A DNA stretch of 54,394 nt, the filler included, from Jimgerdemannia flammicorona (taxonomy: Eukaryota), in assembly GCA_003990765.1 (NCBI GenBank). It is 3 parts of 3 records of this genome, joined end to end, with 100 filler letters (N's around TTAATTAATTAA, not from the genome) between each part and the next. Parts side by side here need not be neighbours in the genome. Positions count along the whole stretch, not along the records: positions 36,337 to 54,394 come from RBNJ01002316.1; 2 more parts are not named here. The stretch is one strand, 5' to 3'. Below are positions 523-54,394 of the stretch, in pieces. Position 1 is the stretch's first letter. Every line of letters starts with the position of its first letter. The notes under the pieces are model-generated. The model did not search any database and was not told the DNA's origin. It saw only the letters and a list, made by a program, of their open reading frames with translations. Made by a program: the position numbers and the translations under genes.

Positions 523-541
523 TTCTTGCTAGCAGGAAACA

Positions 542-10570: not shown

Positions 10571-10929
10571 CAAAGAAGGAGATGGGGTTTTAATATGGTA
10601 CTTCTAATATAAACTATTAATTGCAGTTATGTTATTCTTCTGCATCTTGTCATAATAAAGTAATACAGTATTCTAACTGATTCTCAGATATTTTCAAAGC
10701 CTCAATTAATTAACTTTCTTTAGCCACCAAGGATGATATTTCTCCAGATAGTGTGAATAACTTCTACTGCTATAAGATTGATGGAGAATCAGACAACATT
10801 ACAAATTCCTTGTGGGAACACTTTCTTTATAAAATTTTGAACTTAGAGATTGGTAGAGAGATCAGAAATAGAGTTCAGACAAAGGCACTATCTTGAATAA
10901 ATATTATATATGAATAGAAATAGAATACT

Positions 10930-12398: not shown

Positions 12399-12414
12399 CA
12401 AAGAACTTAGAGCA

Positions 12415-18073: not shown

Positions 18074-18173
18074 NNNNNNNNNNNNNNNNNNNNNNNNNNN
18101 NNNNNNNNNNNNNNNNNTTAATTAATTAANNNNNNNNNNNNNNNNNNNNNNNNNNNNNNNNNNNNNNNNNNNN
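18074..18173. other. Artificial contig linker (44 N + TTAATTAATTAA + 44 N)
   Basis: Exactly 100 bp, with stops in all six frames; identical to 36237-36336. Confidence 0.98.
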
Positions 18174-23612: not shown

Positions 23613-24332
23613 AGGGCATGTTGCTTGCTGTCAGCATTATCCAATGTTGGAAATAATAACAATAATAACTTAATGGGCCAAAACAGCGCGCTTGACAGCA
23701 TGGACGTCGGCGTTATCGATATCCCTCAGTGCCACTTGGCCTTTTCCACCGTTGTACTCTGGGTGATGTCATCTATGAGATCCATTATACCCCAGTACAC
23801 AAGACTACAGGTGCAAAAATGCAACTATCAAAAGCTTTGGGACAAGGACATCAAAAGAAAGTGTACTCAGGAATTACAAAATCCTAGTACCATACACTGA
23901 GTACCATAGAGTATGCCCTATACATTTAAGTATATGTGTACTGTGGTATTATGATATAATCATTAGATGGATTATTTTTATCTCAATAATCAGTCATTTT
24001 TCTAACTAGCTACTTATTCAGCTTTACTTTAATATATTTATTATTTACAATACATTTCTTTCCTCCTTTCTACTGTAATGTGCTGGCTCAATAGAGATAA
24101 ATTACAAGGTGGGGCAACTATATGAATTGGCTTGAGCCCCCAGTTACTTTGTCAAAAAGTAACAAAATGTTCAATAGTTAATCTCAGACAGAATATCTCT
24201 TAATTAGGTAAAGTTCTTCTTTAGAACTTTGATAGCAAATTTTCTAACTTAATCTGGTAAGCAGACTAAAAATAGCAGACTTCTTTATATTAGAATGTAG
24301 ATTAGAGCAGAATTAGATATTAAAGCTCACAA

Positions 24333-24334
<2 letters not shown>

Positions 24335-24369
<35 letters not shown>

Positions 24370-25101
24370 TAATCTATAATAATATATAGTTCTTATACCA
24401 TACCAGTAGCTCCAACCCAACTCACTTCACCCTATTCTACTCTAACATACTTTCTCTCTCCTATTTCTACTTTCTTGAAAATAATCATATTATTAATCAC
24501 TATAACTTATTTTTTACTCTTTCTATAAATCTCTTTCATCAGATACTGATAGTGACTACTCTGAGAGCTCTATCCTCTCTACTAGCTAGATAGTATGTCT
24601 ACTATTAGCTTCTCTCATCTTGCCACCTTCTCTTCTAAGGCAATTTATCTCTTATCCTTAAATATATAGCTAATATCTAGTTAACTCTATCTATACTACT
24701 AATGTCTACTCAACAGTAAGTTACTCATTACTAATATATCCTAACAACTGCTCTCTTAAGACCTCTCACCTACTCTTTACTCCATCTGTATACTACCTCA
24801 GCTTTAGACAGTCTTCAACTCTCTCTTAAAAGTCACTAAGTACTTTATACTCACTTAGGTAATATTTAGACATCTGTATAATCTCCTCCTTTTGCTCTAT
24901 ATTGAAATAATTCTCATACTTGAAACTGTCTCTCACTACTAAGTATTTTGACCTAAAGTTCAATATAAAATTCTTCCTTAAGATATTATCCAGAACTTTA
25001 GAGGAAGTTACTACTATACCTTAGTACTCTAAGGCCATACTTTAGCCTAGTCTTAAGTCTTATCAATATCTGCTATCTGCTAGCCTAATGGCTATAGATT
25101 C
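24335..25101 (-). mobile_element. Heavily mutated LINE 3' portion with poly(A) (poly(T) on +)
   Basis: Poly(T) at 24335-24366. Its reverse complement aligns with 10930-11155, differing mostly by G-to-A changes. Interrupted at 25102 by an LTR copy. Confidence 0.75.
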
Positions 25102-25914
25102 TATAAATAGGTTATTTTATTAGAATATCATTATATAGTTCTGGAAGAGTTTTCTAGAAGTTCTAAATATTCTAAAAGATCATTTTCTTTAAGGTTAAGA
25201 TCAATTTTATATAGAGTACATCCTCTATACTTATTGATTTCAAGATTAGATTGACATCTTAACCAAAGTCCTTTTTTGGACTTGTTCTAGATGTTCAAAA
25301 GGTTCTGTATTTTAGAAAGTTTAAGAAACTAAGGCCAGCTTAATTGAATTAGCATATTATTACAGATAATACCCAATTAGGAAATTTTGTGACTTGGTTA
25401 TAAGTGGGATCTAATGGGATTAAGAGTAGTTTGTAAGTTATTAAATAGATTTATTTGCTATTTATGATATTACTATACTAAGAGTAGTATATGAAGGAAT
25501 ATTATAGAGAAGTGTTCAGAAGTTCTTGTCTTTATATCTATTTATATCTGTTTGAGTCTGAGTTTCTGAGATCTGGAAGAGTAGATATTTATACTAATGA
25601 GAGACTATCTGAACTATACTAAATATGAGTATAGTACTTAGTATTTTAATGAGTCAGAATATAGTCATATAGTATAAGAGTAAACTGATATATTAAGAAA
25701 TTGTCTGACTATTAAGTCAGTATACAGTTACATTATATAAGACTAATTTAATTATATTAATGACTACTAAGCTATAGATTTAGATACTATCTAGATAGTC
25801 TTTAATAAGATCACTATTGATGATATCATCTCTGATGAAGTAGTTATCTAGAAAGAGTAGTTCTTGGATAATATCTCTTTGTTTATTTATATAGTAATAT
25901 GTTAGAACTATGTC
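25102..25914 (-). mobile_element. Partial LTR copy (outermost and oldest LTR of the nest)
   Basis: Aligns directly with 27041-27851 but is more AT-rich. Starts TATAA (mutated TGTAA). Truncated by the LTR starting at 25915. Confidence 0.8.
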
Positions 25915-27040
25915 TATAAGTACACAATCTTTAAGCTACCAAAATCACACATCACTCTTAGAATAAATTCAGAAATCACATGCAAGATTATAAAGCTGAG
26001 TCAAACCAAAGTCACAGAGCACAAAGCTGAGTCAACTTGAAGTTACAGAATATAAGATTTATATAAATAGAATCTTACCAATCAAGACCAAATATATATG
26101 TATATACCAAGTACTTAGATATATCAAAATAGAGAACTATAACAAACTAAATAAATAACCATAACTCTTAAATATATATACAAATATGACCACTGAGATT
26201 TACAACTACATCTATACTGATATTTGGAATATCATTGTCAACTGAGCTACCTCTTCTCTACTTCTCATGAATATCCATAGCCTGGTACCTCTTTACTTTA
26301 TAAAAGCCAATGAAATACTCTGAACATACTCAGCAAAGCTTACTAAATTGGACAAATCTCAAGCTACTACCAGATTGACTGTCTCCTAGAAGATATGATT
26401 GAACACTACTATAATATAGATATTATCTAAATATCTCAAAACCAGAAACTCATTGCTTATAAATACTAAGAACTCTTCTATAAGTACAGTATCTTTATTC
26501 TCCATCTCTGAGTTACTACTACTGAAATAGTTGTCACTCTGTCCTATAGCCAAATTGATGATATAGTATAAGAACTTAACCACAAGTATATCAAGTATAT
26601 CCAGACCACAGATAGAATCTTCTCATATCTCAATGACTACATCCTACAAATGCCCCAAGTTAGTATATTATGAAGAATATCTATGATATAATCTAGTTTA
26701 ATAATAATGAAATAGAAGATCTCTGCTAGCTCTGATTACTCCATCAATCTTGCTAATGAACTTACAATAGTTCATAACTATCTATGAGACCTATTGAGAT
26801 AATAACTACTAGTATGAGTACTAACCTATATTTATGTCTGACTACTTTAACTACAATGAAGAGACTAGAGAACATAACCTATATCTCCAGACAACCCTCA
26901 ATATTGAACCAACAACTCTACTATCTGAGTATAAATAACATGAAGAACAGCTGCTAACTTACTATAACTTAGCAATATATAGTATCATAACCTACAGAAG
27001 ATATACAGATAGTAAATCTAATGAAAGTGAAGATGATATA

Positions 27041-30000
27041 TATAAGAGGGTTGCTTTTTAGGATAACCATTATGTAGTTCTGGAAGGGTTTTCTGGAAGT
27101 TCTGGATATTCTGGAAGACCATTTTCTTATAGTCAAGATCAATTTTGTATGGAGTACATCCTCTATACTTATTGATTTCAAGATTGAGTTGATATCTCAA
27201 CCAAAGTCCTTTTTCAGACTAGTTCTGGATGTTCAGAATTCTCTATATTTCAGAAAGTTTAAGAAACTAAGACCAGCTTAGTTGAATTGGCATATCACTG
27301 CAGATAATACCCAATTAGGTAATTTCGTGACAGGATTAGGAGTGGGACCTAATGGAGAGTGAATTTACTTAAGAGTGGTTTGTGGGTTATTAAATAGGTT
27401 TATTCACTATTTATGATATTGCTATACTAGGAGTAGTTGTGTAAAGGGATATTGTGGGGAAGTATTCAGGAGTATTCTTGGATATCTGGATCTGAGATTC
27501 TGAGGTCTGAGGGAGGGGGTATTTATACTAGTGAGGGGCTATCTGGGCTATGCTGAATATGGATATAGCACTTAGTGCCTTACTGAGTTGGAATACAGTC
27601 ACATAGTTCAAGTGTGATCTGACATATCAAGAGATTATCTGACTACTGAGTCAGTTCACAGTCATGTTGTATAAGGCAAATCTAACTATACTATGACTGC
27701 TAGGCTATTTATAGGTTTAGACACTATCTGGGTAGTCTTCAATGACATCACCAACAATAATATTATCTCTGATGAAGTAGTCATCTAGAAAGAGTGATTT
27801 GTGGATTACTTCTCCTTGTTTGCTGAGGTAATAATATATTGGGACTTTATCACCATCTTACAGGATAGCATCATCTGTCTCATATGCTAGATAAGGCATT
27901 GGTGGGTGAAGGAGGGGTGCATTGTCTTCACTTTCATTGGATTCACTGTCTGTATACCTTCTATAGGTTATAGTACTATGAGTCATGGGGTTGTAGTAAA
28001 CTGGTGGCTGTAGTTCATGTCACTTGTACTTAGGTGGTGGAGTGGTTGGTTCGATCTCAAGGGTTGTCTGGAGGTATAGGTTGTGTTTTTTTTTTTTTTT
28101 TTTTTTTATAGTTACTTAGACTCCTTTATTATGAACTATCTAATACAATATCAACTAACCACAAACCACTACCAACATCACATAACATATATAAGTAGAG
28201 CCCTTCAACCAACTTCAACCAACTCCTTCCTTCCATCTCACCCCTTGATCATCTAAAACCAGATATCCTTGACTCCTCTGTATAATATCCTACACCTTCT
28301 TTAAGGCTCCTAGTTGAAGTTGCTTCCCCTGATACCACCATCCCTGAACTATCTCCTGGAGAAGCCACCTCCACTGCTCCACCATCTTACCAATCCCCAT
28401 CTATGGGTCCTGTTCAAAAATCCACTGCCAATGTACCACCATCAAGACCCAGACTCTTAAAACTTGACCAAGGCCCCCCCATATATCACTAATTTCCCCT
28501 ACCAGCCAGTGCTTGACTACCAGACTGGTCAGATCATCTGCCCTATGCCTCTCTGAGCCCCAGTAACCTTCCAAACTCTGCCAAAATCCTTCCACACCTG
28601 GGCAGGCCCCCAGAACATATTCTGGTATCTAAACAACTCCTCCATCTACCTCATCACACCACTCACAGTCCCGACAGCCATCCACCTCCATCTAACCTGT
28701 CCAATAGCTCAGCATCACATTACATCTCAAAAATCGCCACCAAACCACTCAGTATTTGGGAGGCACCATCTTGTATACTGAGGCTCCCCAATTCCAAATT
28801 TGAGCCCACTCCTAGTCTTCACCAATACCAGCTCTCTGCCACCCAGGTGGCCATCTCTCCAGAGGGCCAGACCTGATCCACTCTATTGCCTCAATTAGAG
28901 AGTACTCCTTCAGACTGTGGCCACCAACACAAAGGTCTCTCAGTTGCTACCACCTCTGCTCAGGGTTCTCACCCACCTTGATCTCTGGGCCTGCCAACCC
29001 CATGGCCAGCCAGGCCTCTACAATACCCCACCAGAACCCCTTAAACCACAGTCGGCCTATACTCCTAACTTGAAGCAAGCCCCGCATATCCTTCCAAACC
29101 TCACCATGATGGCAGAACCAGACCTCCCAATTATCCATAGTCAGTCTGCCCCAACCTTCCTCACCTAGTTCTATCATTCGGCACCCCCACCAGCCCCAAA
29201 GCACCTTCAGCTAGCATCTGAAATCCACCAACCCCAGGCCTCCATCTGAAGTCCTCATTACTAAAGTCTCCCATCCAATCTGTGGACACCTCCCATGCCA
29301 CAACCACCCTTCTACAATCTTCTTCAACTGCTGCACCACCCACCCTGGGAAATCCAGATGATAACCCAGATACCACAGTTTGGATAGCCAATACACATTC
29401 AAGACCACTATCCTGCCAATCAAGGAGAAGCTCCTCCCTGACCAATCTGTCAGAGCACCTTCCAGCCTCTGAATTAAATCACACCACCACTCCTTCGGCA
29501 GGACTGTCCCATATACTGAGAACCAGATACCCAGATATCGAACTGCACTCCCCATGGCTACCAATTGTCTGAATTGTCCAAGACCTCCCAGTCTAGCACC
29601 AAGTTCCATTGTCTCATACTTGCCTCAATTCAACTTCACTCCTGCCAGCCTCTCATACTGTCCAACCCCTTCTTGCAGAGCTTCTACATCCTCCTGACTA
29701 CCCAACTCTACTACCATATCATCTGCAAAGGCACCCAGCTGCCAGACCACATCTCCCATCTTCAGTCCCGAGAGCCACCCCTTCAGCCATGCCAGCAGAG
29801 GCTCTAGAGAAAGTACATAAAGAAGGGGGGAGAGAGGATCCCTTTGTGGTACCCCTTGCCCCAAGGCAAACTCTGGTCTATACCATCCATTCATCATGAC
29901 TGCTGCTCGGCATCCCCATACTAAGCCCATCAGATGCCCTGCCTCTACTACACTAAATCCGGCCCTCCTCAGAACAGCCTCCAGATAACTCCACCGCACT

Positions 30001-33000
30001 CTGTTATAGGTCTTTTCTTGATCCAGAAAGACCATCTGGCCATCCACCTGCTGGCTCCTACAGCTCTCTAAAACATTCTGCACCCAGGCAGTACTATTCC
30101 TGATCTGCCTCCTCTTGACAAAGCCATGCTTCTCTTCTCCAACTAGTGCGCCAACATACTGCTGCATCCTCCCTACTAGAATCTTTGACACCAACTTTCT
30201 ATCTACATTCAGCAGCATGATAGGCTGCCAATTATGCCACACCCATCAATTCCCCTTTTTCTTGTATAGAAGAGAAACTAGCCCCAAGGAGCCATTGCCT
30301 ATCCAGCAACCCTCCTTCAGAATAGCATTGGCCATCTCCACTAACCAGTCACTGAACTCGGCCTTGAACTCCTTCCAAAATTCCCAGAGTAACCCATCCT
30401 CCCCTGGGGACGAACCAGTCTGCATCTTCCTCAATACTTCCAATACTTCATCTAGAGATACCTCCCCCATGACTACTTTCCCTATCTCAGGTATCACTAT
30501 CACTGGCCAACTGTTTACCATATTGTCATTATCCACCTCAAACTCTGTGCCCTCAGCCTACTCCCCACCATCCTGCCAAAGAGCTTGCCATTGGCTAGAT
30601 ACCTCCCCTAACATGTCAGTAATCCCAGAGACCTCTACTCTATCTTTGCACAATACTGAAGCCCAACTATGTCATACTCTCCTGGCCTTCAAGATACCAG
30701 ACAGATATCTTGTCGGCCTCTCTCCTTCTTCTAACCATCTAGCTTGTAGCCTGGCCAGCAGGCCATCTACCACCCTGGTCTCTAACACCTTTAAATCAAC
30801 CTGCAACTCAGCCATCTCTAATGCCAACTGGTGGCACACCTCTCCAGACAAGTTCCCCTTTTCCAAGAGCTTCAATCACCATCTCAGTCCCTTCTCCACT
30901 CTCCTTTCCTTGTCCTTCTGTTCTTTTCCAGCCACTTCTCCAACATTATGCCAGTAAGCACCAGCTAAGTGTTTGAATTTACCCCACCATTTTGCTATCA
31001 ACTGTCCTTTATTCCACCATAGCATAACTTCCTGTTTCATAATGATTACAAAATTGTCCCTCTCCTTCTTCCTCCTGAGTAAGGCTATATTGAGGCACCA
31101 GCATCCACTACCACTGCCTGCCGCTTGGAATCTCCTGCAAACCTCCACTCCCCAGTGATCTGACCAAGGGCACCAGTATACCTCAGCAGTGTCCAGTACA
31201 TTACCCCAGCACTCTGCTACTAGCACCCAGTCTATTCATGTCCCAACTAATACTGTTCCAACTGGGTTCCACTGGGTGAAAGGTCCCACCACATCCCTCT
31301 GCCATTGACGAATACCATCCACCAAGTCCATGTCTCACTCCACCTGAAGCCATTGAGAAAGTCCATGTGATACTGTGACTCCTGCTCCACCATCAGATCT
31401 GTCCAGTGCTTGATCACACACCATATTGAAGTCCCCCCCCAAAATGTCCAAAGCAACTACCTCCTGACCATCCCATGTCTGCCATCCCTTAACCCATTGC
31501 TTTCGCTCTCTGCCAACTGCAGGGAGGTAAACTGATCTAACTGTCAAACCATCACCTGCCCCTCCTTTTAGTCTTCCCCAGATCAGTCTGTCGCCATAGC
31601 TCTCTACCTCCACCAACTTTCCTTTGCCTATACCAATCAAGATGCCTACCTACATATTCCAACCTGCTCCACCATACCATTCTTTACTTCAAATCTCATA
31701 GTCTGACTCGCCATAAGCCCAAACATCCTGTAGAAACATAACATTATACCTCCTGACTTTAAGCCATCTGAACAGCTGCTGTCTTTTAACACTATCTTGC
31801 AATCCATTGACATTGATTAATAAAATACGTAGATTGTTCATCATCATTAAGGAAATTATTTAAAGCTCAGCTGGGACCACTACCACCTTCTCAGCCTTTC
31901 TTCTAATAATCTCTTGCTGGTCCTTACAAATTGTCCTCCAGATTTGATCACCATTTTCACTACTGCAGAACAGGTCCACTCTTTCAGTTGCCACCTTCCT
32001 GATATCAGCTATTCTGCTCTTATCAATATCATACCCTTCATCATCCAGAAGAGCAGCTACCATTGCCATCACCAGCTTAGGCCCCTGCATCGCTACCTTG
32101 AGAAATCCTTCCCATACCTCCTGAGATCCATTAAACATGTCCACTTCCTTGATATCCTCCTCAGCCAGCTCCTCTAGCACCACCTGGTACCAACTCTCTG
32201 CCATCATCACCAGGGGCCCAGGAGTTAAAGGCCTGGGGGTCCTGCTCAACTCTTACAGTTGTTCTCTATCTGCTGACACATCAGAAGCCACATCCACCAG
32301 CTCATCCTCCTCCACCACTTTCTCCAAATGAATTACCTCACCAGCTTCCAGGTACTCCCAATGCATATTTACCACTCCAGCCATATGAGTGTCCTCCACC
32401 TGAGTTTCCAGCACCACTTCAGCATCAACCTCAAAGCCTCCTTCACCAACCTCCTCCTTATCCTCCTACTTTCCTCTCACCAGTGCATATGCTGAGTCCT
32501 CTATACCACCCAGCTGGGAGAAGGACACCTCTGCCACCTCCACTCCTTCTATCTGATTCTTGGCCACCTCTACTCTTGCCTCCTCTTCTACTGCCGCCCT
32601 CTGAAGGGCTGTCTGTAGATGCTCCCAGTTCCCTTTCCTCCACCTCTTCTGCTTGCCATCTGCCTGGATCCAGACTCAATCCTTTGCATACTCCTCCCAC
32701 TTCCTCTTTCACAGCTCCTTGACAGCCTCTTCTCCTTCAGAGCAATTGCTAACTCTTCCTCCTCCTGTTCTGCTCCCTTCCTCCTCCACACCCTGCACTC
32801 TTGCCCCCCAATTCTAATCCCTTCAGATCAATCATGGTCTAGCCCAGTCACCTCCTTGCCTTCCAATTGCAGCATCACCTCACAGTTACCATTCCTCAAC
32901 TTAATGCTCTCCCAGAACATGAATCTGAAGTCCACCATCTCACCATATCCACCCAGTGCCTCTACCATCATCTCCTTGGTCTCCTGCCTGCCTAGAGTAG

Positions 33001-34938
33001 GCAGTCCTTCCACCACCAGCTGAACAGTATGTGGATCCCATCTCAGACACCTTGCCATCCCAATCTGGACACCCTTGACTGTCATCCCTTTCTCCAGTGC
33101 CTTCACTATTGCCTCCTCCTTCACAAATCCAATCTCTACAGCCTCTGCCAAAGGGATGAACTTCAGAGATTCTGCCCCAGCCACCTCCTCCCCCACCAGT
33201 CTCAGAACCTCCCTCGCTGACATCACTAATCCCAGGAAGTTTGCCAAGATTGCCAATGTTGACACTGATTTGTGAAAGAAGGGCCTCACCACCAGCTTGC
33301 TAGTCCCAGCCACCAGAGTCACCTTTCCTTTGGCCCCTGAAATACTAGTAGTTATCTCACCAGGTACAGCTGTGCCACCTACAGTCTTCTCCCCAGCCAC
33401 CTGCTCAGTTACAGAAAAACCAGTCTCCAGCATCATGCCACCAGACCCCTGTCTCCTGCCAGCCACCTGACCTGTCACCTGACTCATCACCTGACCCCTC
33501 CCCCTGTCAACACTATGTCCCCCCTGGCCAACCCCCATGGGTCTAGTTGCAGCCCTCCTATTCTTAACCACCATATGCCAGGCCTCAATCTCTCCAGTTC
33601 TCCCCTGTCCACCTGCCCCTCCAGCCACTACACCAGTCCCTGCAGCAGCTGCAAAGCTCTTGGGGATGCTCAGACTGGGCCTCCTCCTCTTTAGATGCTC
33701 AGAGCTAGAGGAATCTTGACTAGCCATGTCACCAAAACTTGACAGTTTTCCCTGAAACTTGTTGTGTCTTATAGGTAGACTCCCACCACATGATATATAC
33801 TAGTATGTTCGAAATAAAAACTTGAAAATGTGTTGTCTTTTGCTGAAAGATGTCTGTGTAGCTTAGCTCTCTCCAAATGGTTCGAGCAAAAGAAGTTCCT
33901 GATACTCAGTATAGGTTGTGTTCTTTGGTCTCTTCATTGTAGTTGAAGTAATTAGGAGTGAATATGGGTTGGTATTCATACCAGTGGTCATTGTCCTAAT
34001 AGGTCTTGTAGGTGGTTATGAACTGTTGTAAGTTCATTGGCAAGATTGGTAGAGTAATCAGGATTGGCAGAGATTCTTAACTAGAGGTCATGTTAGCATC
34101 AGAGGGATCATTGTCTTCTGCTTCATCTTCATCGAACCAGATTATATCATAGACATCCTTCATAGTGTATCCAACTTGAGGCATTTGTAGGATATGGTCA
34201 TCAGGGTGTGGGAAGGTTCTGTCTGTGGTCTGGATATACTCAAGGTACTTGTGGTTGAGTTCTTATATCATGTCATCAATTTGACCATAAGACAGAGTAG
34301 CAACCATTTTGGTAGTAGTAACTCAGAGGTGGGGAATAAAGGTGCTATACTTGTAAAAGAGTTCTCAGTATTTACAGGCAATGAGTTTCTGGTGTTGAGA
34401 CATCTGGATAATGTCCATGTCATGGAGTGTTCGACTATGTCTTCCAGGAGGTAGCCAATCTGGTAGTAGCTTGAGATTTGTCCAATTTGATGGACCTCAC
34501 TAAGCATGTTTAGGATATTTTATCAGACTTCTACAAAGTAGAGGGGTGCTAGACTATGGATATTCATGACAGACAGAGGGGGGTGTAGCTCGGTTGACAA
34601 TGGCATTCCAAATGTCAGCACAGATACAGTTGTAGATCTTGGTGGTCATGTTTATATATGTTCAGAGGTTGTGGTTGTTGTTTGTTTTGATTCTTTATTT
34701 GATGCATCTTGGTACTTGGTATATATACATTTAGTCCTGATTGGTAAGATTCTGTTTATATGAATCCTGTATTCTATGACTTCATATTGACTCAGCTTTA
34801 TATACTGTGACTTTGGTTTAACTCAGCTTCATGACTGAGCAGGTGATTTCCAGATTTGTTCAGAGGTTGCATGTGATTTCGGTGGCTTGTTCAGAGGGTA
34901 ATATGTGATTTCAGTGACTTGGAGATTGTGCACTTACA
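27041..34938 (-). mobile_element. Solo LTR (~2.06 kb: 27041-28087 + 33923-34938) with 5-bp TSD
   Basis: Ends are TATAAG (TGTAA) and TTACA. Flanks ATATA (27036-27040) and ATGTA (34939-34943) both derive by transitions from ATGCA, the homologous site preserved at ~27918-27922 (reverse complement). Confidence 0.8.
28088..33908 (-). mobile_element. Full-length but inactivated L1/Tx1-clade LINE with poly(A) and 14-bp TSD
   Basis: Poly(T) at 28086-28107. TSD GTATAGGTTGTGTT at 28074-28087 and 33909-33922; the empty site is seen in the LTR copy at ~26850-26900. ORF1 spans 33727-31860. ORF2 starts ~31847 with ILLINVNG, GGDFN, WSDH, LDQEK, GVPQ.DPLSP, FADD and YLGI. Confidence 0.93.
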
Positions 34939-43857: not shown

Positions 43858-45486
43858 GGATCAAGTCCTTGTGAATTTTTATTAGAAGGGAACCTAGACT
43901 ATATAGGGCAAAATCCTCCCCCACTTCCTCCCTGAGTGCTACTCCCCCATTATCCTTAGACTATAGAGAGAACCTACAGTTCCATCATTCTAGCTATATA
44001 TGTTAGATATACTAACTCCTACTATATAGACTAGACTTGTCTGTTTACTAGAACTGAATCATCAGATTAATATTATGAGAGCACACCTATACATTAGATC
44101 TAGTAATGCTAAGACTGAACAATATAATCTCTCTGAATCCAAATGAAAGCTAGAGATAAAATAAAAATCCCCCAATCAACCAATAAGAAGCAGAATAGAT
44201 TCATAGTAAGTGAGTAAAGAAGTTATATATAAAATACCCTCAAAAGGACTTATATATGAGCTAAGACCTAAAAAGACCCCAATCCCACTCTCCAAACCTA
44301 TAGGTCTTAATTATATTACTATATCAGCTCCTAAGTATTACTAAATGAGAAAGGTCCTACTCTTCAAGCCTGTGGGTCTTGATTATATTACTATATCAGC
44401 TCTCAGTTTTAGTTAGATATAGTCAGAATACCTATATCACCCCACCCTCTGCTAATCAATCAAAAGACCTTACTGAGATAATATCTATTTAGTACTCTTA
44501 ATAAATTAAATTAAATTAAATTTGACCCAAATTTAATTTAATTCAATTGAATCAAAGGTTTAATTTAATTCAATTTAAATTGAATCAAAGGTCTAATTCA
44601 ATTTGAATTAAATCAAAGGTCTAATTCAATTTGAGATTCAATTCAAACTCTATTTTTTGAAATATAATAACTTGACAAAAATATGTCCAAATTTAAAGAT
44701 CTTTAGCTTTTTAGATTTCTCTATATTAGAGAAATCTAATAAGCTAAAGATTATTAAATTTGGATATGTTTTTATCAAGTTATTATATTTTGAAAAATAG
44801 GGTTCAAATTAGAACTTCAATTTGATTTGAATTCAATTTGATTCAAACTTTATTTAAATTAAAAAATCCCCAATTTAATTCAATTTGAATGATCCTCAAT
44901 TTGATTTGATTTGAATTGATTTGATTTATTTGGGAGTACTATGTCCACCCCAACCCTGATGACTGCCCCCAGTTTAGTACTTAACTAGTTCACTATTATT
45001 ACCTATCTATCTATTTATAATAGCTATCTCCCCTCTCAATCTAACTCTACCTGAAAAACAGTCATCTATACTAGAACTGTACTCACCAAGAAGCTTGCCA
45101 AAGCTCAGAGAGCCCCACTACAGACACTGACAACCTGTAGATAATCTATATATACTAGTACTTAATATCTAAGATTAGCTAACTCTCTACATAGTTTATA
45201 ATATATCATGATAATACCTTATTAATAATAGCAAAAGGAAGAAGATGCTGTACCAAAGTGGGTATATCCCAGATATAGCCAGAGATACCAGAAACTGTGA
45301 AAAAGAGGAAGAAGCACTAATCTGATACTGATAAAGAGATAACTTATTACCATTGTCTCTCTCTCACTATACTCTCACAGGTACAGCAAACCAATCTAAG
45401 ATAGAGGAGGTAAAAGTAGAAAAAAAGAGACTCAGAAGGTTGCTCACCAAAACCTTGTGACTGGTATAGTAGCAGAGAAAGGGGTG
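43826..45486 (-). mobile_element. Poly(A)-tailed retroposon insertion (non-autonomous or decayed LINE), ~1.2 kb excluding the nested MITE
   Basis: Poly(T) at 43826-43853. Perfect 15-bp TSD TATACATGTTGGCTA at 43811-43825 and 45487-45501. Confidence 0.8.
44490..44941. mobile_element. hAT-family MITE, largely palindromic, copy 1
   Basis: Termini TAGTACTC...GAGTACTA. The 8-bp flanks TATCTATT and TGTCCACC differ only by C>T/G>A changes. Central hairpin near 44725; subterminal ATTTG/CAAAT repeats. Confidence 0.8.
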
Positions 45487-45521
45487 TATACATGTTGGCT
45501 AAGTAATGGTTTGGCTAAGTA

Positions 45522-45578
45522 TATGTGACTAATTTGGTATGTGACTAATTTGGTATGTGACTAATTTGGTATGTGACT
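45522..45578. repeat. 16-bp tandem repeat ATGTGACTAATTTGGT x3.5
   Basis: Direct inspection. Confidence 0.9.
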
Positions 45579-45993
45579 GCTTTGGTTGTTCATTCGCAAA
45601 ATGAAAGACCTGTGTTGTACACAGGACAAATGCTTTGGGTCAAGCTGTTTGTACTCAGGACAAACACTTTGGGTAATACATTGGTTAAGTAATACATTTG
45701 CTGCAGCGCGAGCTGCGGCTCCAGTGTTCAGGGGGTTCGGCATGTCATTTTCCGCGCTTTGCTCGTATGTCGCTCGTTCGTGACGTCATCGCAGGGTCAC
45801 GTGATCGCCTTTCGCGCCTCGTCATGTAGTTCTATTACAGGTGGCTGGCCTGCCTTCCGCTAGTCAAAAAGGATAGGGGTGACGTTAGATCTCCATCCAG
45901 AAGCTATACACAATAGCCAATAATAAATATCCATTAACTACACACATGAATTCAAAAGTAAGCAGAAAAAAAAAAAAAAAAAAAAAAAAAAAA

Positions 45994-46049
<56 letters not shown>

Positions 46050-46051
<2 letters not shown>

Positions 46052-46385
46052 ACAAAGAGGCATATATATAAATTTTACCATTTTATCAGCCAAAAGTTCT
46101 TTTATGATTCTTTTATGATACAAACATATTATTTTTCAATAGCAATAAAAAAATAAAAAATAAAACCTTTAAGTAAATCTGATGCAATACAATAAACTGA
46201 AAACAATATCTAAAAATAATTTTCTAATAGATTTACAGAATTTATTAGATGATAAGATCTATTGCTAGAAAATTTTGATTCAAAAAAGATAGCTATGAAT
46301 TTGTATTATTTAAGAGATAAATAGAGCTTTTTGTTGGGGTATTTCAAGCTGATGATTGTAGTAGGAAACTACTATATATAAACTA
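46050..46385 (+). repeat. Hypermutated copy of segment 37020-37362
   Basis: For example actaccacacacaaa becomes actactatatataaa, and tacgatacaagcacacgatt becomes tatgatacaaacatattatt. Confidence 0.8.
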
Positions 46386-47287
46386 TTATATCATTAAGAG
46401 ATCAAACTACTTAGAAGAGAGTTTTCATATTTTCTACTCAATTCTTAAAATAGATTTTAACTGATTTGGCATAAGTCATTACATAATGCACTCTATACTC
46501 TAAAATACAGAGATCTGATATAGAGATCTAATATGATATAAAATATAATCAATACAATATAATAAATTGATGTGATAATTTAATATAAATATTTCTAACT
46601 ATAAATTTATATTAAATTTACTACTTGCTATTAAATATTTAACTTTTTTTTTTAAAAAAAAAATATTTAACTCTTTATCACTCACTCACTTACTCATTAA
46701 GTTATTATACTAATAAAATATAATATATTGATTAATAATAGCATTATCTCTCTCAATACTATTATCTTTCAACTTATATATTCTGAATAATATAATTACT
46801 CTCTGGTAGTTGAAATTTAACTTTATTCTTAAATCTATTAATATAAAACTTCACTTTCTACAATAATTTCCTTATCTCTCTCCAATTATTTCCAATTCAC
46901 TTCTAAATTATATTATAATCTTAATACTAATCTATTCTTCAGTAGTCTGGCCAATATCTCTATTCTGCTCAATAATATTGTAATATTTATTTTTACTAGA
47001 AACTGATCTATTTGAAATTTTTATAAGCTTTAGAAAAAAAATAAGTCATTATAGTATAAATATGTTTACAATCAAGATTATATTTTTTAAAATTATAATA
47101 AATATAAATAAACTACTCATAATTACCAGTTTTATTCATTATTCTTATTCTTGTAATAGAATAATTGAGTTCAGCATTTTGTAACTATATAAGAAAGATA
47201 TTACCAGATATATATATAATCTGTTCTTTTAAAAATTTTTAACTATAGAGCTCTTATTTGTATTAATTATAAATCTATAGTACTATT

Positions 47288-47703
47288 TAGTACTCTTAAA
47301 CAAACCAAATTAATTTAAATCAAATGAAATTTAGAATCATTCAAATTAAATTAAATTGGAGATTTTTTAATTCAAATCACATTTGAATTAAATCAAATTC
47401 AAATCAAATTGAGGGTTTAATTTAAATTCTATTTTTCAAAATATAATAACTTGATGAAAATATATCCAAACTTAATAATATTTAGCTTGTTATATTCCTC
47501 TTATATAGAGAAATTTAATAAGCTAAAGATTATTAAATTTAGATATATTTTTATTGAGTTATTATATTTCCAAAAATAGAGTTTAAATTGAATCTTAAAT
47601 TGAATTAGACCTTTGATTTGATTTAAATTAAATCAAATTGGACTTTTGATTCAATTTGAATTAAATCAAATTAGATCTTTGATTTGATTTATTAGGAGTA
47701 CTA
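47288..47703. mobile_element. hAT-family MITE, copy 2 (inverted relative to copy 1)
   Basis: Termini TAGTACTC...GAGTACTA. 8-bp TSD GTACTATT (47280-47287) and GTACCATT (47704-47711). Confidence 0.85.
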
Positions 47704-47899
47704 GTACCATTCTACTAATACTAAGTTTTTTTTAGTAAGATATCTACATTGTATATTAACTAAAATATAATGAATTAGCAGATAATTAAATCTATCAAGT
47801 CTTCAATTTAATCTTTTTTTAAGATAAAAATATTTGAGCTTTTAGTAAAAAGACTCGATTAAATTATTAGTATCAATTATTGATGAGAATAAGAATGAT

Positions 47900-48840
47900 A
47901 ACAAAGTGTCTTTTGCATAATTGACTAATCAAATATAAACCATAAAAATGTATGTAAAATGTAGATATAGACTATAAAATTGTAAGTAATTATATACTGT
48001 AAACTGGAATAATTGTATGCTGTAAAAGAAGTAATTATATATAAAAATGTAATTGTAACTGAAGTTGATGGGTTTGGCTTATATAGAAGTATATGCTTCC
48101 CTAGGGCCTACTATTTATGTTAGAGTGAAAGGAGTCATTTTATTGAATATAACTATAAGGAATGAGTGGGAGGGATGTGCAAATTGAACTGTGAGATTGC
48201 TAATGATTACTGGTATAGTATATACTTAGTTGCTAAAAGTAGTGAGAGCTGAGATATAATGAATACTCAGTCACTGCATAAAAAAACTATATGGTGTCTA
48301 TCTGAAATTAGCACTAACTAGATTGCTTTTGGTGTAAGAAATCAATTGAAACTAGTGCAGGGGAATATATAAATATTCTATATAATTGTTTTAGCAGCTT
48401 ATTCTGCATGAATGTATGAATATTAAGTGGCTATTCTATATGAGTATTAAGCAGCTAATCCATATGAATATTAAGTGGCTCTGACCACTTTGCTGAAGTT
48501 TGAACTACATTCATAACTATATTAAAGTATCCTTTATATAATTGACTAATCAAATGTAAACCATAAAAATATACATAAAATATAGATATAGACTATAAAA
48601 TTGGAAGTAATTATATACTATAAACTGAAATAATTGTATACTATAAAAGAAGTTATTGTGTAATTGTAACTGAAATTGATAGGTTTGGCTTATATGAAAG
48701 CATATGCTTTCCCAGGGCCCACTATTTGTATTAGAGCAAAAGGAGCCAATACTGTAGGCCTAAGAAGTGAGTTAGACTCCTAAGAGTGCTACAACTCACT
48801 TTGTGAGTAATATTTGACTACTACTAACCAAACCCATAGC
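47900..48840 (-). mobile_element. Hypermutated 3' end of an Ngaro-type element with split direct repeats (B1-A2-B2)
   Basis: A ~215-bp direct repeat occurs at ~47918-48137 and ~48539-48748. The spacer contains accactttgctg.agtttgaact, also found at ~10227 (the 5' end of the contig-1 element). 48742-48840 aligns with 5994-6100, the end of the recombinase region. Confidence 0.7.
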
Positions 48841-48859
48841 TAGTGCTCCGAACGAATGG

Positions 48860-49062
48860 AGTTGATCTAGATGAGATTCGATTCAGATTCATCATGTGAT
48901 GGATTTGAATCAACTCGGATTGGTCTTGTGATCTGATCTGGATTGATCCGGATTGATCCAGATTGATCCATCCAGATTGATCCATCCGGATTGATCCATC
49001 CGGATGATCCATCCAGATGATTCATCTGGATTGACCCATCTGGATTGATCCATTCGGATTGA
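48860..49062. repeat. hAT subterminal repeat array (GGATTGATCC[ATCC])n
   Basis: About 10 degenerate 10-14-bp units immediately inside the terminus. Confidence 0.85.
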
Positions 49063-49338
49063 AATCTTTGGTGACATCACCCTTTCTTTTGTTCATTTTG
49101 CTCTTGTTTTTTTTTTCTGCCGCACTTTGGTGATATCACCCTTTCCTTTGTTCCCTCTCTTTTCTTTGTTCTTTTTCTTTGTTCTTTCCTACTGCATCAC
49201 GAGCAAACAAAACAGCAGCCCTAAATTCGTACGTTGGTCCAGTCTACTCATTTTTCACCCTGCAATGATTGTCAAAAGAGGGAGTATTCAAGGTAGAACG
49301 TACTCTCTGCTGACAATGTTAGATTCTTTCTCATATAG

Positions 49339-51324
49339 ACAGCACACAAGCTGCTCATCGAGAGCCAAAGGGGTGACGGTGGTGGCGGTGGCGGTGGCGA
49401 TAGCGATGGCGATGGCGGGGATGAGGGAGAATTCTGGCAACAACTCATGGCGGCCCTTCGGACCTCGGAATTCACAGACCTCACAGCTATGTACGCAGCA
49501 GCCTTTTTGGAGCAGCCAATAGTAGATATAGGTTGCTCACTTGACTGCCACTTGTTTACTTGTGTTTATTTATTTAAACTTCCCCAACACGACCCAATTC
49601 ACCTCGTGCTTTTCTCAGGGTCCACAGCTCTACGGCGAGATCTGCCGACTTTATTCGCAACATCTGGTCAAGATGAAGAAAGACTGGCGGACATTGTGGG
49701 GCATACCTTTGGTGGCTGAGCTGTTGAGTCAATGCATCGCGTGGCAGAGGTCTCAAAAGGAACAGAAGCAAGCCTTCGTGAGCAATTCTTGTGCAACTTG
49801 TGCAACTCGTCGGTGTGCAACTCATCGGCATGTAACTCGTCGGTATGCAGCTCACTCACTCGCGCTCTTTTTCTGAAATACCCATCTCCGTATTTTATTT
49901 AATTTCATTTTTACGTGGTCTCCCCCTAAAAAATACCCACACCCGCATGCAACCCACATGCAACCCGTCCACATGCAACCCGCCTGCCCACATGCAACCC
50001 GCCCGCATGCAACCCGCCTGCAATCTACCCGCACGCAATCCGCCCACACGCAACCCATCCGCATACTTATCTTGGTCCCTCAGATCAGGGCTCAGTTCCA
50101 GTGGAAAGGAGAGTTCAAAGTTACCCGAGTTCAACCTTGTCCGGCGTCTGATCAAATAGAGAAATTCGAGGGCAAGATGTTCAGCATGAGCAGTACCAGT
50201 ATCGTCATCAAGGCTTGGGGGTCTATATTCGAATCAGAGCCAATCGTACTCGACCAAGGGGTCCATTGGCCAGCAGGAGTAACCAATGATGAAGAGAACC
50301 ATATCTTTATTAATGAACGTGGAGAGGTGGTTGCGATGGTGGTAAGGAATCTCTATGATGATGAGCTTTGCCGCCACATCAACGAGATTTGTGAGGATTG
50401 CATCAAATACCGGGTGGCAGGGAAGAGGGGGCGAAAAAAGCAAGGAGGGGGGGTTTGGACGGGAATTGGGTATACTGCAATACTGGCAAAGGGTGGGTTC
50501 CGAAATCCCCCGCACTCGTCTCCCTTTTTTTTTAACCCCTCCCCAGATAAATCACACTCTTCGCTGATATACTCTTTTTGATACAATTCCAGAGATGCAC
50601 AAGATTCTGTACCCCTACCAGAACTTTAGAAGTGCTGTCGAAGAGCAAACTGTACGTGAGCATAACATGGCCTGTGCGGCAATGGTGGCTATGATCTGGG
50701 GTTCTTTGAGCAGATTGGTAGAGTGTACGGCAGGCCAGCTTGGTGGTGATCTCAGCATGGCTGTACATATGTTCTTGGTGCAATTTAGCATACCGTATGA
50801 GATGAGGAGCTCTGCTTTTTTGGGGTGCTGCAGTCTGGGGGGTTTCTGCGGCCCGGGGGGTTTCTGCCCCCCGAACGCAAAAAGGACTGACCAGTTGCCA
50901 TCCGTTTTGGCAGGTTTTCAAGCCGGGGCTCCCGGGACTGGACCAAGGGCAGGCATCCACCAGCACAGCCTGGCAGTATGAGGTCCTGGGCCAAGGGTTC
51001 ACCCAACCATACGCTCGCGTCACATCAGGATATATTGGGCGCAACCTTTCTCTGCCCATACACACAGATAACAACGTCACCCCGGTAATGTTTTACATCC
51101 CGGAAAGGAAGGGCCCAACCTGGGAGGACAGCAGCGGAGTCTGGTACGACCTCACCTACGGTTTCGGGGTCCTATTTGCAGCCAACACGGCCGTCCTATT
51201 CCAACCACATGACCACCACGGCACCATTGCCTTCAAGGAGAGCTCGGATACAACAGTCGTCGCACTCACAACAGATGACAGGCTCATTAAGGCCTGGGAC
51301 CGGTGGGTGGAGCAGTTTTTGTGA
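49339..51324 (+). CDS. 2-oxoglutarate/Fe(II) dioxygenase, TET/JBP-like, spliced, carried inside the hAT element
   Basis: Phase-consistent GT-AG exons 49339-49521, 49619-49777, 50084-50492, 50593-50717, (optional 6-nt exon 50789-50794) and 50914-51324 give an uninterrupted frame. That is 392 aa from Met 49447, and the true start may be upstream. Motifs: IFINERGEVVAMVVRNLY, KRG...GIGY, N-LSLP-I-HTD-NN (HxD), GVWYDLTYGFGV...AVLFQPHDHHGT (distal His). The usual 2OG-binding Arg after the distal His is not evident. Confidence 0.68.
49790..50064. repeat. Two intronic minisatellite arrays built on TGCAAC(T/C)CG
   Basis: tgcaactcgtcgg units at 49790-49860 and catgcaacccgcc units at 49940-50064, inside intron 49778-50083. 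Confidence 0.85.
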
Positions 51325-51604
51325 GGGTTAGGCAATCTTTCGTGAGGGTTAGGCAGCCATTTTGTATGGGTTGGGCAGTCTTATGTGGGAGGGTTGGGCC
51401 GGGCGCCTCTTATATAGCACTAGCTTAGCTGTTATGCAGGGCTCTACTGGCCCCTCGGCCCTACTCTGTAGTGCCGCCAGTGCGGCGCTGCGGTACAGGG
51501 CCGGGGTGCCCGTGGGACCCGAACCGGTGACTTCGACTGCCGGAAACGCCCTCCGACCACCAGAAGCACCCTCTGACCACCAGAAGCACCCTCCACCCTG
51601 GACT

Positions 51605-51955
51605 CCTTGGTGGCTTGGGGCTGCCCCTATGCCGCTGGCGGAGGGCCACAAATTTTGTGCGCTCCCTCCGCCTGCCCCGCCCGCCAACTGACCCCGCCCA
51701 CTGACCTGGGCACTGACAGCTTGGGGCTGCCCCTCACTGCTGGTGGAGGGCCGCAAATTTTGTGCGCTCCCTCTGCCTCCCCCCCCAACCCAGATACTTG
51801 TGGCTTGGGGCTGCCCCTTGCTGCTGGCGGAGGGCCACAAATTTTGCGCGCTCCCTCTACCGACCTGCCCACCGACCTGCCCACCGATCCACCCACCGAC
51901 CCAGGCACTGGCAGCTTGGGGCTGCCAACCCTGCCCCACTTTGGCCACAAACTCT
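51605..51955. repeat. GC-rich ~90-110-bp tandem repeat (~3.5 copies) between the convergent dioxygenase and transposase genes
   Basis: Repeated gcttggggctgcccc...gctggcggagggccacaaattttgtgcgctccct. Confidence 0.85.
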
Positions 51956-52049
51956 GGGCCGAGTCCTCAGGTTTTTTTCCTTTTTATTAATTTGAAAGGT
52001 ATTAAATATTCCACAAGGCCAATCAACTTATCTGCGGACCCACGGAATT

Positions 52050-54394
52050 TTAGTGGCCCGAGCCCCACCAAGACTTCAGACACATACATGCCCGGATTGT
52101 CTCAGAATTCAGCACACACCTCTTTAGGGCAACAAGGTCCACCCTACCTGAGAACACCCGCTCGATGGGAGCGCTGGAGGCAGAAATTGCCAGATAGTCC
52201 CGAGCCATACCACACAGGCTGGGGAAGTCCATTTGACACAGCTGCACACCCCGGTGGGTAGAGTAGAGCGGTGGTTAGATTGGTGGGTTAAATTGGCCCA
52301 ATGCCCGCCAGACAACCCACCTTCCACCAGTTGAGCACCTCCATGCCCTTCAGCAGGACCACGCAGTCGCTGGCAAGGTAAATGGTAAGTTCGTCTATTG
52401 ACGGCAGCTCTTCCACTGACGGCTCCCTCTTCCTCTTTCTGCTGAAGTAAATGTGGGACAGGAGGGATCCCTTGGCATATTCGTCTGGACTTCAGCCAGA
52501 ACCTTGCGGCAGTGCATAGTTTTTCCAGTACACTTCAATTATGGCCTGCTTGGTTCTCTCAATGAAGTGCTGCTCCCAGCCCTGATCTTTATGATATTGT
52601 AGCTTTAAGCGTGGGTCCAGCACTGTTCGAAGAAAAGGAGAGTGAGTTTTTGCAGGGTTTCCTCTGTTTTGGAAGGGGCAATGGCCACATGCCGACATTG
52701 ACATACCTGTACTGATTGAGTATACAGCAGTATCTGTTTGGGTGTAGTATTTTCTAAGCTTGCTTAGAGCAACCACCATGGTGTCTCTCTGATCCGGGCT
52801 TAACTGTAAATCACCACAACCCTCCAGCCTGTCCTCGAGCTTGTCCTCTAGTCAGTCAATCAGAAGGTTGTATACCGGTATCGCAGAGCTTATTGTCGGG
52901 GTCATTTGTTTGACTATATCCTTTGTACAATCGTCGAAACACTGACAGTTATATGTGGTGAGGTGTTGCACTGTGCAGAGGTAGACCAAATGAGTGTGGA
53001 GCCAGGGCAACCACCACTTACTTCCAAAACTCTGACAACATTCCTAAGTACGTCCCACTTGCTTTCACCTAGAGCCTCAGCCTGTATTTCCTTGTCGGTA
53101 GCCATCGTTGAATCTATTGGCTTTTTTTTTTTTTTAAAAATAAATCTTCCATCATCCGAAACAGTTGCTTCAGCCGACCAAAGAAAAAAAGGATGCATAC
53201 CACAGCAAACTCCAGCGCACGCTGGATCATTGCAAATGTTGAGTTCCAATGCATACAGACATCCAATATAAGCTCTTTTGGGGCTAAACTGATTGCCCTA
53301 TACTGCGCAGCGAATTTGTCTCGTCATTGTGAGGATGATTGGACCGACACAACCAGTTTGTGCAGCTTGGAAATTATACTCAGGGCCCCTCCTCTCTCAG
53401 ATGTTTTGTCTATGTGCATAAGATAGTCCTGAACAGCGAGGTTCAGTACGTGGGCCTGGCATCACACATGACAGCTTTCTGCACTGAAGGCCACGTTTTC
53501 CTATTTGAGACTGGCCACTAAACTTTGGAAAAATGTTGAGTTGTTTGTGACATTGTCCGTCGTAATGGCCAAAATCTGTACTTGAAATATTTGGTTGACA
53601 AATTTATATGAAAATAAGTAACCAATAAAATCTGGTTTGGTTTAGGACCTCCCTCAAAACGCCGACCTGATGGTAAGCCCCCCTTTTTTACCTTGGTGGT
53701 GATCCCAAACTCCCGGATACAACTAATAAAAGTATCTGCGATGTTGTCTCCAGAATGAGGGCCAGCAAGTTTGACGAAGTCAAGGGTGAGAGATTTAAGC
53801 TGCCAATCGAGATCAATCTAATGACCAGTAATGCCCAGAAATGAAATTGCATTGGGGGATGTCCATGTGTCGATCGTAAATGAAATTTTGCCTGCCGAAT
53901 TCTGCTTATTGAATGTGAGATTAAATTGGTGAGCTCTTTTGTATAATTCAGCTTGCAAAGGTCATGGTGCTGCCCTTATTTTACCTGAAGTATCTGGCGG
54001 AGATTATCATGCTCCTTCCTATAGGCCTCCAGGACATCTTTGCGAATAGTATCAGTACTTGGCAAATATAAATCATGCTTGAGGAGGCCAAAGATGCTAT
54101 GCAATTGATCACTCTCGATGGTTGTGAATGGCTGGTCTGTGCACACAATCCAGCGAACGAGCCGATTTCGAAATTCTGCCGAAGAGTATGGCTAAAATTT
54201 TTGATTAAATGGCGTTGTTGGTACAGAAATGGTCAGGCAATCAGATAAACGTACCCACCACAGCTTGGATGTCGATTTTATTTGTCTCCATGTTCTTTTT
54301 GATTTTGTCAGAGTGCTTGTCTTTTATGTGTCGATTCATGTTCGAAGTCGTACCCCCAAGCATTTTGAACTTCTGGCTGGTGCAGTTCATGGGG
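52050..54394 (-). pseudogene. hAT transposase (partial BED finger, DDE core, C-terminal dimerisation domain), multi-exon, with premature stops
   Basis: C...GTTSNMNRHIKDKH (BED), DQPFTTIES, SFTIDTWTS, GPHSG, ITTDN, CQAHVLNL, LDVCMHWNST (xTRWNST), LDPRLK, MARDYLAISASSAPIERVFS. Stops arise at TGG>TAG, CAG>TAG and CGA>TGA positions. Confidence 0.93.

Follow-up and report, generated by a model that had tools for sequence, protein, structure and literature searches.

A decaying hAT transposon copy in Jimgerdemannia flammicorona and its candidate TET/JBP-like passenger gene

Genes and termini at the locus

The DNA analysed here, referred to throughout as the window, is a stretch of 54,394 nucleotides (nt) from the fungus Jimgerdemannia flammicorona (GenBank assembly GCA_003990765.1). 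From position 48841 to its end, the window contains a putative left terminus of a hAT transposon, a predicted gene for a 2-oxoglutarate (2OG)/Fe(II) dioxygenase on the plus strand and, convergent with it, a hAT transposase gene on the minus strand. This account concerns the dioxygenase gene, a candidate member of the TET/JBP group, and its probable residence within the hAT element. The coordinates of the features are collected in Table 1.

The predicted dioxygenase gene spans 49265-51324. Its six exons join into a frame of 1356 nt without a stop, encoding 451 amino acids (aa), and its five introns, of 50, 97, 306, 100 and 151 nt, are all of the GT...AG form. The C-terminal part of the protein lies wholly within exon 6 and contains the succession N-x5-HTD (H365, D367), GVWYDLTYGFGV, VLF and HHGT (H417). 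Much of this gene structure is mirrored in relatives from other sources. P0003, a protein of 374 aa from the assembly of a public sequencing run, is 31% identical to residues 102-419 of the window protein, with 95 identities in 307 columns. The alignment runs across three exon junctions and crosses junctions 3/4 and 4/5 without a gap. Introns 3, 4 and 5 are found in the same places in a metagenome locus, L001 (after ...KKEF, after ...ASG and near the LPRLDGG block, respectively). Furthermore, the similarity of the window to P0007, a read-through open reading frame (ORF), stops exactly at the donor of exon 4. Two stretches of the gene are repetitive: intron 3 consists mostly of arrays of 15-nt repeats (49801-50076; TGCAACTCGTCGG..., then CATGCAACCCGCC...; families D1, D4 and D6), and a GGC/GGT simple repeat in exon 2 (49375-49418) draws unrelated metagenome contigs, which have loose ends there.

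Some observations weigh against this gene model or against the integrity of the gene in this copy. Exons 1 and 2, which encode a Gly/Asp-rich N-terminus, have no homologue support. At the end of exon 5 the frame is kept by donors at both 50763 and 50778, of which the model takes the former; P0003, P0006 and L001, however, retain a stretch equivalent to window 50778-50801 (VQFSIPYE). In the model that stretch falls within intron 5, and it is not followed by a GT in phase. The window copy may therefore have a frame defect at the exon 5/6 junction, where model and homologues disagree. Reading through intron 5 was considered and not adopted; the intron stays closed unless one base has been lost in a run of C.

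The transposase gene falls into at least ten ORF pieces, split by introns, by damage or by both. Its last piece (52050-52274, minus strand) matches Dimer_Tnp_hAT (PF05699) with an E value of 2.3e-11 and 43.8 bits against a cut-off of 21.4, the matched stretch being about 52068-52232. A zf-BED match at the other extreme (54241-54393, minus strand) is weak, at E 0.024 and 15.1 bits, below the cut-off of 20.6, in a piece that is cut by the window end. Read by eye, the minus-strand pieces carry in order ...DTWTS..., ...TTDN..., C.AH.LNL,.WNST and ...SAPIERVFS. The blocks from DTWTS to SAPIERVFS resemble those of hAT transposases and are candidates for the catalytic DDE blocks.

On the left, the putative terminus is followed by an array of direct repeats. 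Of the eight matches to GGATTGATCC in the window, allowing at most one mismatch, seven lie at 48940-49051, all of them on the plus strand. The AT-rich flank outside the terminus is itself a repeat, since 48000-48137 matches 48621-48748 at 86%, a likeness which fades at about 48800. The structural elements of the original prediction for this locus are borne out. It had described a convergent, spliced and fully open gene, now resolved into six exons, 451 codons and five GT-AG introns; a protein ending in N-x5-HTD...HHGT, where H365, D367 and H417 are present; a hAT terminus with subterminal repeats at 48841, where the terminal 14-mer is unique, the seven plus-strand motifs follow and contig cover begins between 48841 and 48880; and the 3' end of a hAT transposase at 52050, confirmed by the Dimer_Tnp_hAT match.

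Table 1. Features of the putative element and its left border, with positions in the window
Feature	Position	Strand	Remarks
Candidate target-site duplication, CCCATAGC	48833-48840		8 bases directly preceding the putative left terminus; read from sequence; right end beyond 54394
Putative left terminus, TAGTGCTCCGAACG	48841-48854	+	14-mer; no second match in the window with 3 or fewer mismatches
Subterminal direct-repeat array, GGATTGATCC and variants	48937-49076	+	spaced 10-14 nt; families D2, D7
Predicted dioxygenase, exon 1	49265-49292	+	ATG start; without homologue support
Predicted dioxygenase, exon 2	49343-49521	+	Gly/Asp-rich; without homologue support
Predicted dioxygenase, exon 3	49619-49777	+	aligns with the P0003 N-terminus; donor position ...KKEF|V is also where the L001 ORF ends
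Predicted dioxygenase, exon 4	50084-50492	+	N-terminal half of catalytic domain; 60% identical to P0007; exon end after ...AKG common to P0007 and L001
Predicted dioxygenase, exon 5	50593-50762	+	helical insert; donor uncertain (50763 or 50778)
Predicted dioxygenase, exon 6	50914-51324	+	beta-strand core; H365-x-D367 at 51061-51069; H417 at 51217-51219; stop 51322-51324
GC-rich (60%) spacer between the genes	51530-51930		84-105-nt tandem repeats; families D3, D9
hAT transposase gene	52050-54394	-	stop 52050-52052; 5' end cut by window end

Family, iron site and predicted fold of the dioxygenase

The dioxygenase belongs to a small protein family found in metagenomic and similar assemblies. A phmmer search with exon 6 among 1,835,955,588 representative sequences returned five proteins at E <=0.001, four of which are real relatives: P0001 (1.1e-71), P0002 (1.9e-33), P0003 (1.7e-13) and P0004 (1.3e-11). 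The fifth, P0005 (6.6e-4), is a repeat protein. All relatives found for the window protein come from ENA, JGI or Logan assemblies, that is from metagenomes or public sequencing runs, and a cluster look-up yielded no named relative beyond 'hypothetical protein'. Word-indexed protein searches were similarly sparse: exon 4 had no match among longer proteins, P0003 as query matched only itself and P0006, and a profile of alignment A2 matched only P0003 and P0007.

The putative iron ligands are well conserved within this family. In the nine rows of alignment A6, HxD is present in eight, the other being P0004 with HVN, and the distal His in all nine. The two positions are 50 residues apart; in NgTET1 and JBP1 the spacing of the iron ligands is also about 50 residues. 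Beyond the distal His, TET/JBP enzymes are expected to have a conserved Arg that binds 2OG. An Arg at +28 is found in eight of the nine rows, and the column at +21 (R438 in the window protein) is R in four rows and S in five; either may be the 2OG-binding residue, but the variable column weighs somewhat against a TET/JBP-like assignment. The cluster to which P0004 belongs has 28 members; its representative has HVN, whilst the near-identical P0013, P0019 and L001 have HVD. Judged from these sequences, some copies in that cluster are without the Asp iron ligand.

A scan of metagenome loci with the close alignment A4 gave two loci, L001 and L002. Positions 1-3666 of the former and 1-2870 of the latter represent the same AT-rich repeat (34% GC), each in a soil metagenome of its own. 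They are alike along their whole length, flanks included, and each contains a related dioxygenase gene of at least three exons. The gene in L002 has two in-frame stops. The existence of two copies in other metagenomes, one of them with stops, suggests a transposon-like life of the related gene elsewhere. No hAT pieces were detected in the flanks of L001 and L002 (0.7-1.7 kb; best E 0.48), the contigs being too short to inform on linkage.

The passenger is almost certainly a 2OG/Fe(II) dioxygenase of some kind and, on the evidence of fold comparison and protein language models as opposed to hidden Markov models, very likely a TET/JBP-like one. In the language-model look-ups, exon 6 of the window protein came out next to two clusters that bear the name 'Tet-like 2OG-Fe(II) oxygenase' (scores 0.91 and 0.90; PF20515 in 72% and 100% of members) and next to a third (0.88), 31% of whose members have Tet_JBP. 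With P0003 the best cluster, from Basidiomycota and with PF20515 in 15% of members, scored 0.96 (209 of 256 features), and a Tet_JBP cluster was found at rank 11. The fold comparison rests on a second AlphaFold model, that of P0003, calculated from a 14-row alignment (mean predicted local distance difference test score, pLDDT, 49.5; predicted template modelling score, pTM, 0.50) and compared with 48,161 solved chains. The closest chain was TET2 (Z 13.3, 222 residues, 3.6 A), followed by NgTET1 (Z 13.0, 208 residues), CMD1 (Z 11.0) and CcTet (Z 10.5 over 193 residues). Next came FTO (10.3), OsALKBH1 (9.4) and PHD2 (9.3).

A number of results pull in the other direction. No Pfam 2OG or TET family, including PF12851 (Tet_JBP) and PF20515 (2OG-FeII_Oxy_6), matched any of five exon frames at E values up to 1 or any of 12 homologue proteins at E values up to 10, although the HMMER filters remove most matches above an E value of about 0.1. 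Sequence searches of the PDB gave either no match or four chance matches at E >=1. CMD1 and CcTet tie with FTO, the difference being less than 1 Z, and the TET-specific ranking derives from one low-confidence model of a homologue 31% identical to the window protein, not from the window protein itself. The first AlphaFold model (7-row alignment, pLDDT 37.8) resembled generic cupins only, with a best Z of 7.2 and no TET in the best 50 rows. Finally, Foldseek returned no match at E <=0.001 for the P0003 model. Its best rows nonetheless speak for the superfamily, being mostly 2OG oxygenases (prolyl hydroxylases; PHD2 at E 2.2e-3).

These results are relevant to an alternative in which the protein belongs to the wider 2OG/Fe(II) oxygenase superfamily and has a substrate other than 5-methylcytosine, as an AlkB/FTO-like repair enzyme, a protein hydroxylase or a CMD1/JBP-like hypermodifier would. 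The lack of a Tet_JBP or PF20515 match fits such an enzyme, as do the prolyl hydroxylases at the head of the Foldseek rows, the proximity of FTO and ALKBH1 in the fold ranking, and the third rank of CMD1, which glycerylates 5-methylcytosine; other activities are likewise left open for two published types of transposon TET, PU and PE (Kojima 2025; PMC12730594). On the other hand, FTO scores about 3 Z lower than TET2 and NgTET1, for which 208-222 residues are covered, both language-model look-ups name Tet-like clusters, and the window protein is, by eye, collinear with proteins of the PE type, for which structure predictions match CMD1, NgTET and CcTET (PMC12730594). An enzyme of this other kind is considered unlikely. 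The TET/JBP-like identity put forward in the original prediction remains the most likely one because of the four leading fold ranks, the language-model leads and the conserved HxD...H. Of the two kinds of support to be expected for it, the structural one was obtained from a low-confidence model, that of P0003, which is nearest to TET2, NgTET1, CMD1 and CcTet, whilst Pfam returned neither Tet_JBP nor any other 2OG family.

A probable single repeated unit and its decay

Whether the dioxygenase gene travels with the transposase gene was approached through contigs of four sequencing runs, X1-X4 (three soil metagenomes and one coded organism), which were placed on 47500-54394 at >=80% identity. Run X1 contributed 2167 contigs of 80-100% identity, and these cover every bin of 48880-54394. 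Their summed depth is 0-0.01 over 47730-48419 and 9.8 over 48650-48879, then rises to 272.6 in the bin 48880-49109. The subterminal part has a depth of 273-375 and the dioxygenase gene one of 101-238; in the spacer the values are 103-159, and in the transposase gene 174-337. Contigs of X2-X4 also cover both genes, and across the four runs 48880-54394 is free of gaps. The copies differ from one another almost entirely by transitions. In the spacer they vary in repeat number as well, as is seen from joints within 51672-51925 at which 65-187 nt are skipped or repeated. Thus 48880-54394 appears to be one repeated unit with its left boundary near 48841. Since the cover is gap-free in all four runs, the passenger most likely travels with the hAT transposase, as had been predicted, and it is likely that both genes belong to a single element.

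The opposing possibility is that two mobile elements adjoin here, the dioxygenase residing in one of its own (a non-autonomous hAT derivative, or a different carrier, for example a Helitron or an IS3EU) that ends within 51325-52050, next to a neighbouring or nested hAT. Several observations lean that way. The left terminus has an inverted match of 10 nt, AGCACTAGCT, between the genes at 51416-51425, and a direct match to 10 of the 14 terminal bases lies at 52051-52064. One X4 contig is unlike the window to the left of 51972, no contig among those listed bridges the dioxygenase and transposase genes, and the right end of the element lies beyond the window. In addition, hAT is not among the carriers that the abstract of PMC12730594 names for PE-type enzymes. 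Most of these points have a counterpart, however. The spacer is covered in all four runs with no empty bin and flanking depths of the same order, and X2 record 11 (51902-52516) continues through 51972. The match at 52051 is direct, not inverted, and shares bases with the stop codon of the transposase gene. As for the inverted 10-mer, there are 102 inverted pairs of at least 10 nt in these 6.4 kb, so that a pair of this length is common, and its outer flank, the 8 bases beyond 51422 (GCTTAGCT), is no copy of CCCATAGC. Nor is the subterminal array mirrored by an inverted one between the genes; indeed the window contains no inverted cluster of the GGATTGATCC motif, and no second cluster separates the two genes. 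The 10-mer was consequently rated an improbable internal terminus, lacking a target-site duplication and subterminal motifs. A second terminal inverted repeat between the genes, which would have spoken for separate elements, is therefore represented by this short match but by no second subterminal cluster, and two adjoining elements seem improbable beside a single one.

The window copy of the element is decaying. At position 53819 the window has T, where C accounts for 190.7 of 201.3 depth units of X1 and for all or nearly all of the depth in X2-X4. The result is an in-frame TAG in the transposase gene (53817-53819, minus strand) that is specific to this copy; other copies have TGG, encoding the Trp of the ...GITGHW... 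block. In the dioxygenase, window-specific changes include R9Q, R41W, R96W, M98I and G214D, whilst D367 differs only synonymously. The 33 listed window-specific transitions comprise 13 in CpG, 11 in CpA, 6 in CpC and 3 in CpT, and only one of the 13 CpG sites is in a TCG context. Since the transposase gene has a stop specific to this copy and the transitions in both genes are biased towards CpG, some of them being non-synonymous in the dioxygenase, the view of this locus as an intact system is not supported.

A further alternative sees in the passenger a piece of host sequence that the hAT captured, as many transposons do (transduplication), that no longer has a function and whose frame is open only because the copies are young. 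The five listed non-synonymous changes specific to the window copy, the two in-frame stops of L002 and the misfit between the exon 5/6 junction and the homologues would all suit a functionless fragment. Against this, the HxD...H ligands and long blocks of sequence have been kept at 31-37% identity between lineages, together with intron positions, indicating long-term constraint, and the coding regions of such passengers are described as 'mostly not disrupted' (PMC12730594). A functionless fragment is regarded as very improbable.

The ratio of observed to expected CpG is 0.59 for the element, as compared with 0.38 and 0.09 for two LINE-like elements (long interspersed nuclear elements) and 0-0.06 for the AT-rich stretches of the window. 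This depletion, along with the CpG share of the transitions, implies that the genome erodes repeats mainly at CpG, in line with the C-to-T erosion of its repeats that had been proposed, for which the surrounding repeats show CpG-to-TpG decay. Among the repeats of the window the element has been eroded least, as would be expected if it were either young or protected; this copy itself has not escaped decay.

Elsewhere in the window, the AT-rich stretches 10000-12000, 24000-27000 and 44000-48800 (18-30% GC; observed to expected CpG 0-0.24) look like repeats worn by CpG-to-TpG transitions. The two LINE-like retroelements lie in opposite orientation at 12400-18200 (plus strand; the less CpG-depleted of the two) and 28000-34000 (minus strand). 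Both contain RVT_1 (E 4.9e-22 on 16065-17258, plus strand, and 2.8e-15 on 29625-30245, minus strand), and a weak Exo_endo_phos match is found at 14817-15722 (plus strand). Their GC skew is very strong, at +0.3 to +0.5 and -0.3 to -0.5. An ORF at 6031-6681 (minus strand), with a weak match to the tyrosine-recombinase family Phage_integrase (E 1.6e-5, 25.2 bits, cut-off 27.1), may derive from a Crypton- or DIRS-like element.

Relation to known TET-carrying transposons and possible role

TET/JBP genes were reportedly linked to Kyakuja-Dileera-Zisupton transposons in basidiomycetes by Iyer et al. in 2014. The present locus shares with that association multi-copy TET/JBP genes which travel with DNA transposons, and CcTet (7vpn) is among the matches of the P0003 model, but the transposase superfamily is a different one. 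Moreover, TET/JBP proteins linked to Kyakuja-Dileera-Zisupton elements are recognised by Pfam PF12851/PF20515, unlike the window protein. NgTET1 (5cg8) and human TET2 (9hxv) are the best structural matches of the P0003 model and have the same HxD...H iron site. They are nevertheless distant, with 12-13% identity in the structural alignment with that model, and the window protein differs from them in having no Cys-rich domain and in having a helical insert between its two halves.

A closer body of work was published in December 2025, when TET/JBP genes were described on about a dozen lineages of DNA transposons (Kojima 2025, Biology 14:1741, PMC12730594). Among the papers listed by a literature search it is, by title and abstract, the only one on transposon lineages that carry TET. 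Three types of enzyme are distinguished there. The PU type occurs in rusts, the AG type in Agaricomycetes and the PE type in Pezizomycetes and Agaricales. In Puccinia, 20 hAT7 families from six species are reported to carry TET; their duplications are 7 bp long and their enzymes are of the PU type. Escape from methylation-based silencing is the proposed role of the transposon TETs. In the original prediction a hAT carrier was a vehicle not recognised as described. The claim of an undescribed carrier cannot be maintained, as hAT elements with a TET-like gene are already in print, and so is the anti-silencing hypothesis (PMC12730594).

The Puccinia hAT7 elements resemble the present one in combining a hAT transposase and a TET/JBP-like gene in one fungal DNA transposon, amid repeats hypermutated from C to T (PMC12730594). 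There are four differences. By eye, the PU-type domain sequences are unlike the window protein. The consensus starts of hAT7-1_PGr and hAT7-1_PTrit, two of the 20 TET-carrying families, are CAACGGTGGGCC, where the window terminus is TAGTGCTCC. hAT7 elements make 7-bp duplications, whilst the window element, for which an 8-base candidate is listed in Table 1, is known from its left end alone. Finally, hypermutation in Pucciniomycotina follows a TCG pattern (cited in PMC12730594), in which the window-specific mutations are not concentrated.

The PE type offers the nearer parallel for the protein. By eye, the PE sequences of Table S1 in PMC12730594 have the same order of blocks along the whole domain, GE[IV]VAMV.RN, LPR[ML]D..G and GG.F[FY]..YG..V...NT......HGT. 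Both PE enzymes and the window family are too divergent for standard profiles, the former being barely detectable by HHpred, and in both the nearest structures are CMD1, CcTET, NgTET and TET2; predicted PE structures match CMD1, NgTET and CcTET at e-values <1e-5 (PMC12730594). The hallmark of the PE type is HxE, however, as opposed to the HTD of the window protein and the HxD that prevails in its family. The pairing of a PE-like HxD dioxygenase with a hAT probably different from hAT7, with TAG... termini and in an unnamed family met only in metagenomes, appears to be new, being absent from those parts of PMC12730594 on which this comparison is based.

Taken together, 48841 to a point beyond 54394 is probably one copy of a fungal hAT element with a convergent, six-exon, divergent TET/JBP-like passenger that is nearest to the PE type, has a canonical HxD and would serve in anti-silencing, a composite reading held with somewhat less assurance than its parts. 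By analogy with TET/JBP enzymology and with the role proposed in PMC12730594, the following scheme may be envisaged. The passenger gene of an active copy would be driven by the subterminal region that precedes 49265, and the enzyme would oxidise 5-methylcytosine, or another modified base, on element DNA. The mark would thereby be lost or changed to a different one. Either outcome would keep the transposase expressed and would lower CpG deamination, countering the erosion of repeats that is driven by methylation. The enzyme may instead act on 6mA (N6-methyladenine) or another base, or hypermodify its substrate as CMD1 or JBP does. As the window copy has itself been degraded by CpG-biased transitions, any such protection is not absolute.

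It is attractive to consider that the window family is a fourth, so far unnamed, type of transposon TET/JBP enzyme: a sister of the PE type that has kept HxD, is invisible to Pfam, stands outside named protein records and was captured by a hAT independently of hAT7. This suggestion is tentative, its chances being a little less than even. If it is true, hAT would be the sixth carrier of PE-like TETs, TET-carrying elements would extend to a lineage in which hypermutation is directed at CpG and not at TCG or CpA, and the element would be highly repeated in a soil fungus, as judged from the 2167 contigs in one soil metagenome.

The locus establishes no new principle, as both phenomenon and hypothesis have been in print since December 2025. 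TET-carrying transposons are, however, the clearest candidates for mobile elements which actively erase the methyl marks of their host, and whenever a further transposon superfamily proves to have captured such a gene independently, the argument gains weight that the enzyme works for the element rather than for the host. To this the locus would add a hAT carrier for a PE-like HxD enzyme, together with a small unnamed protein family for comparative and biochemical work.

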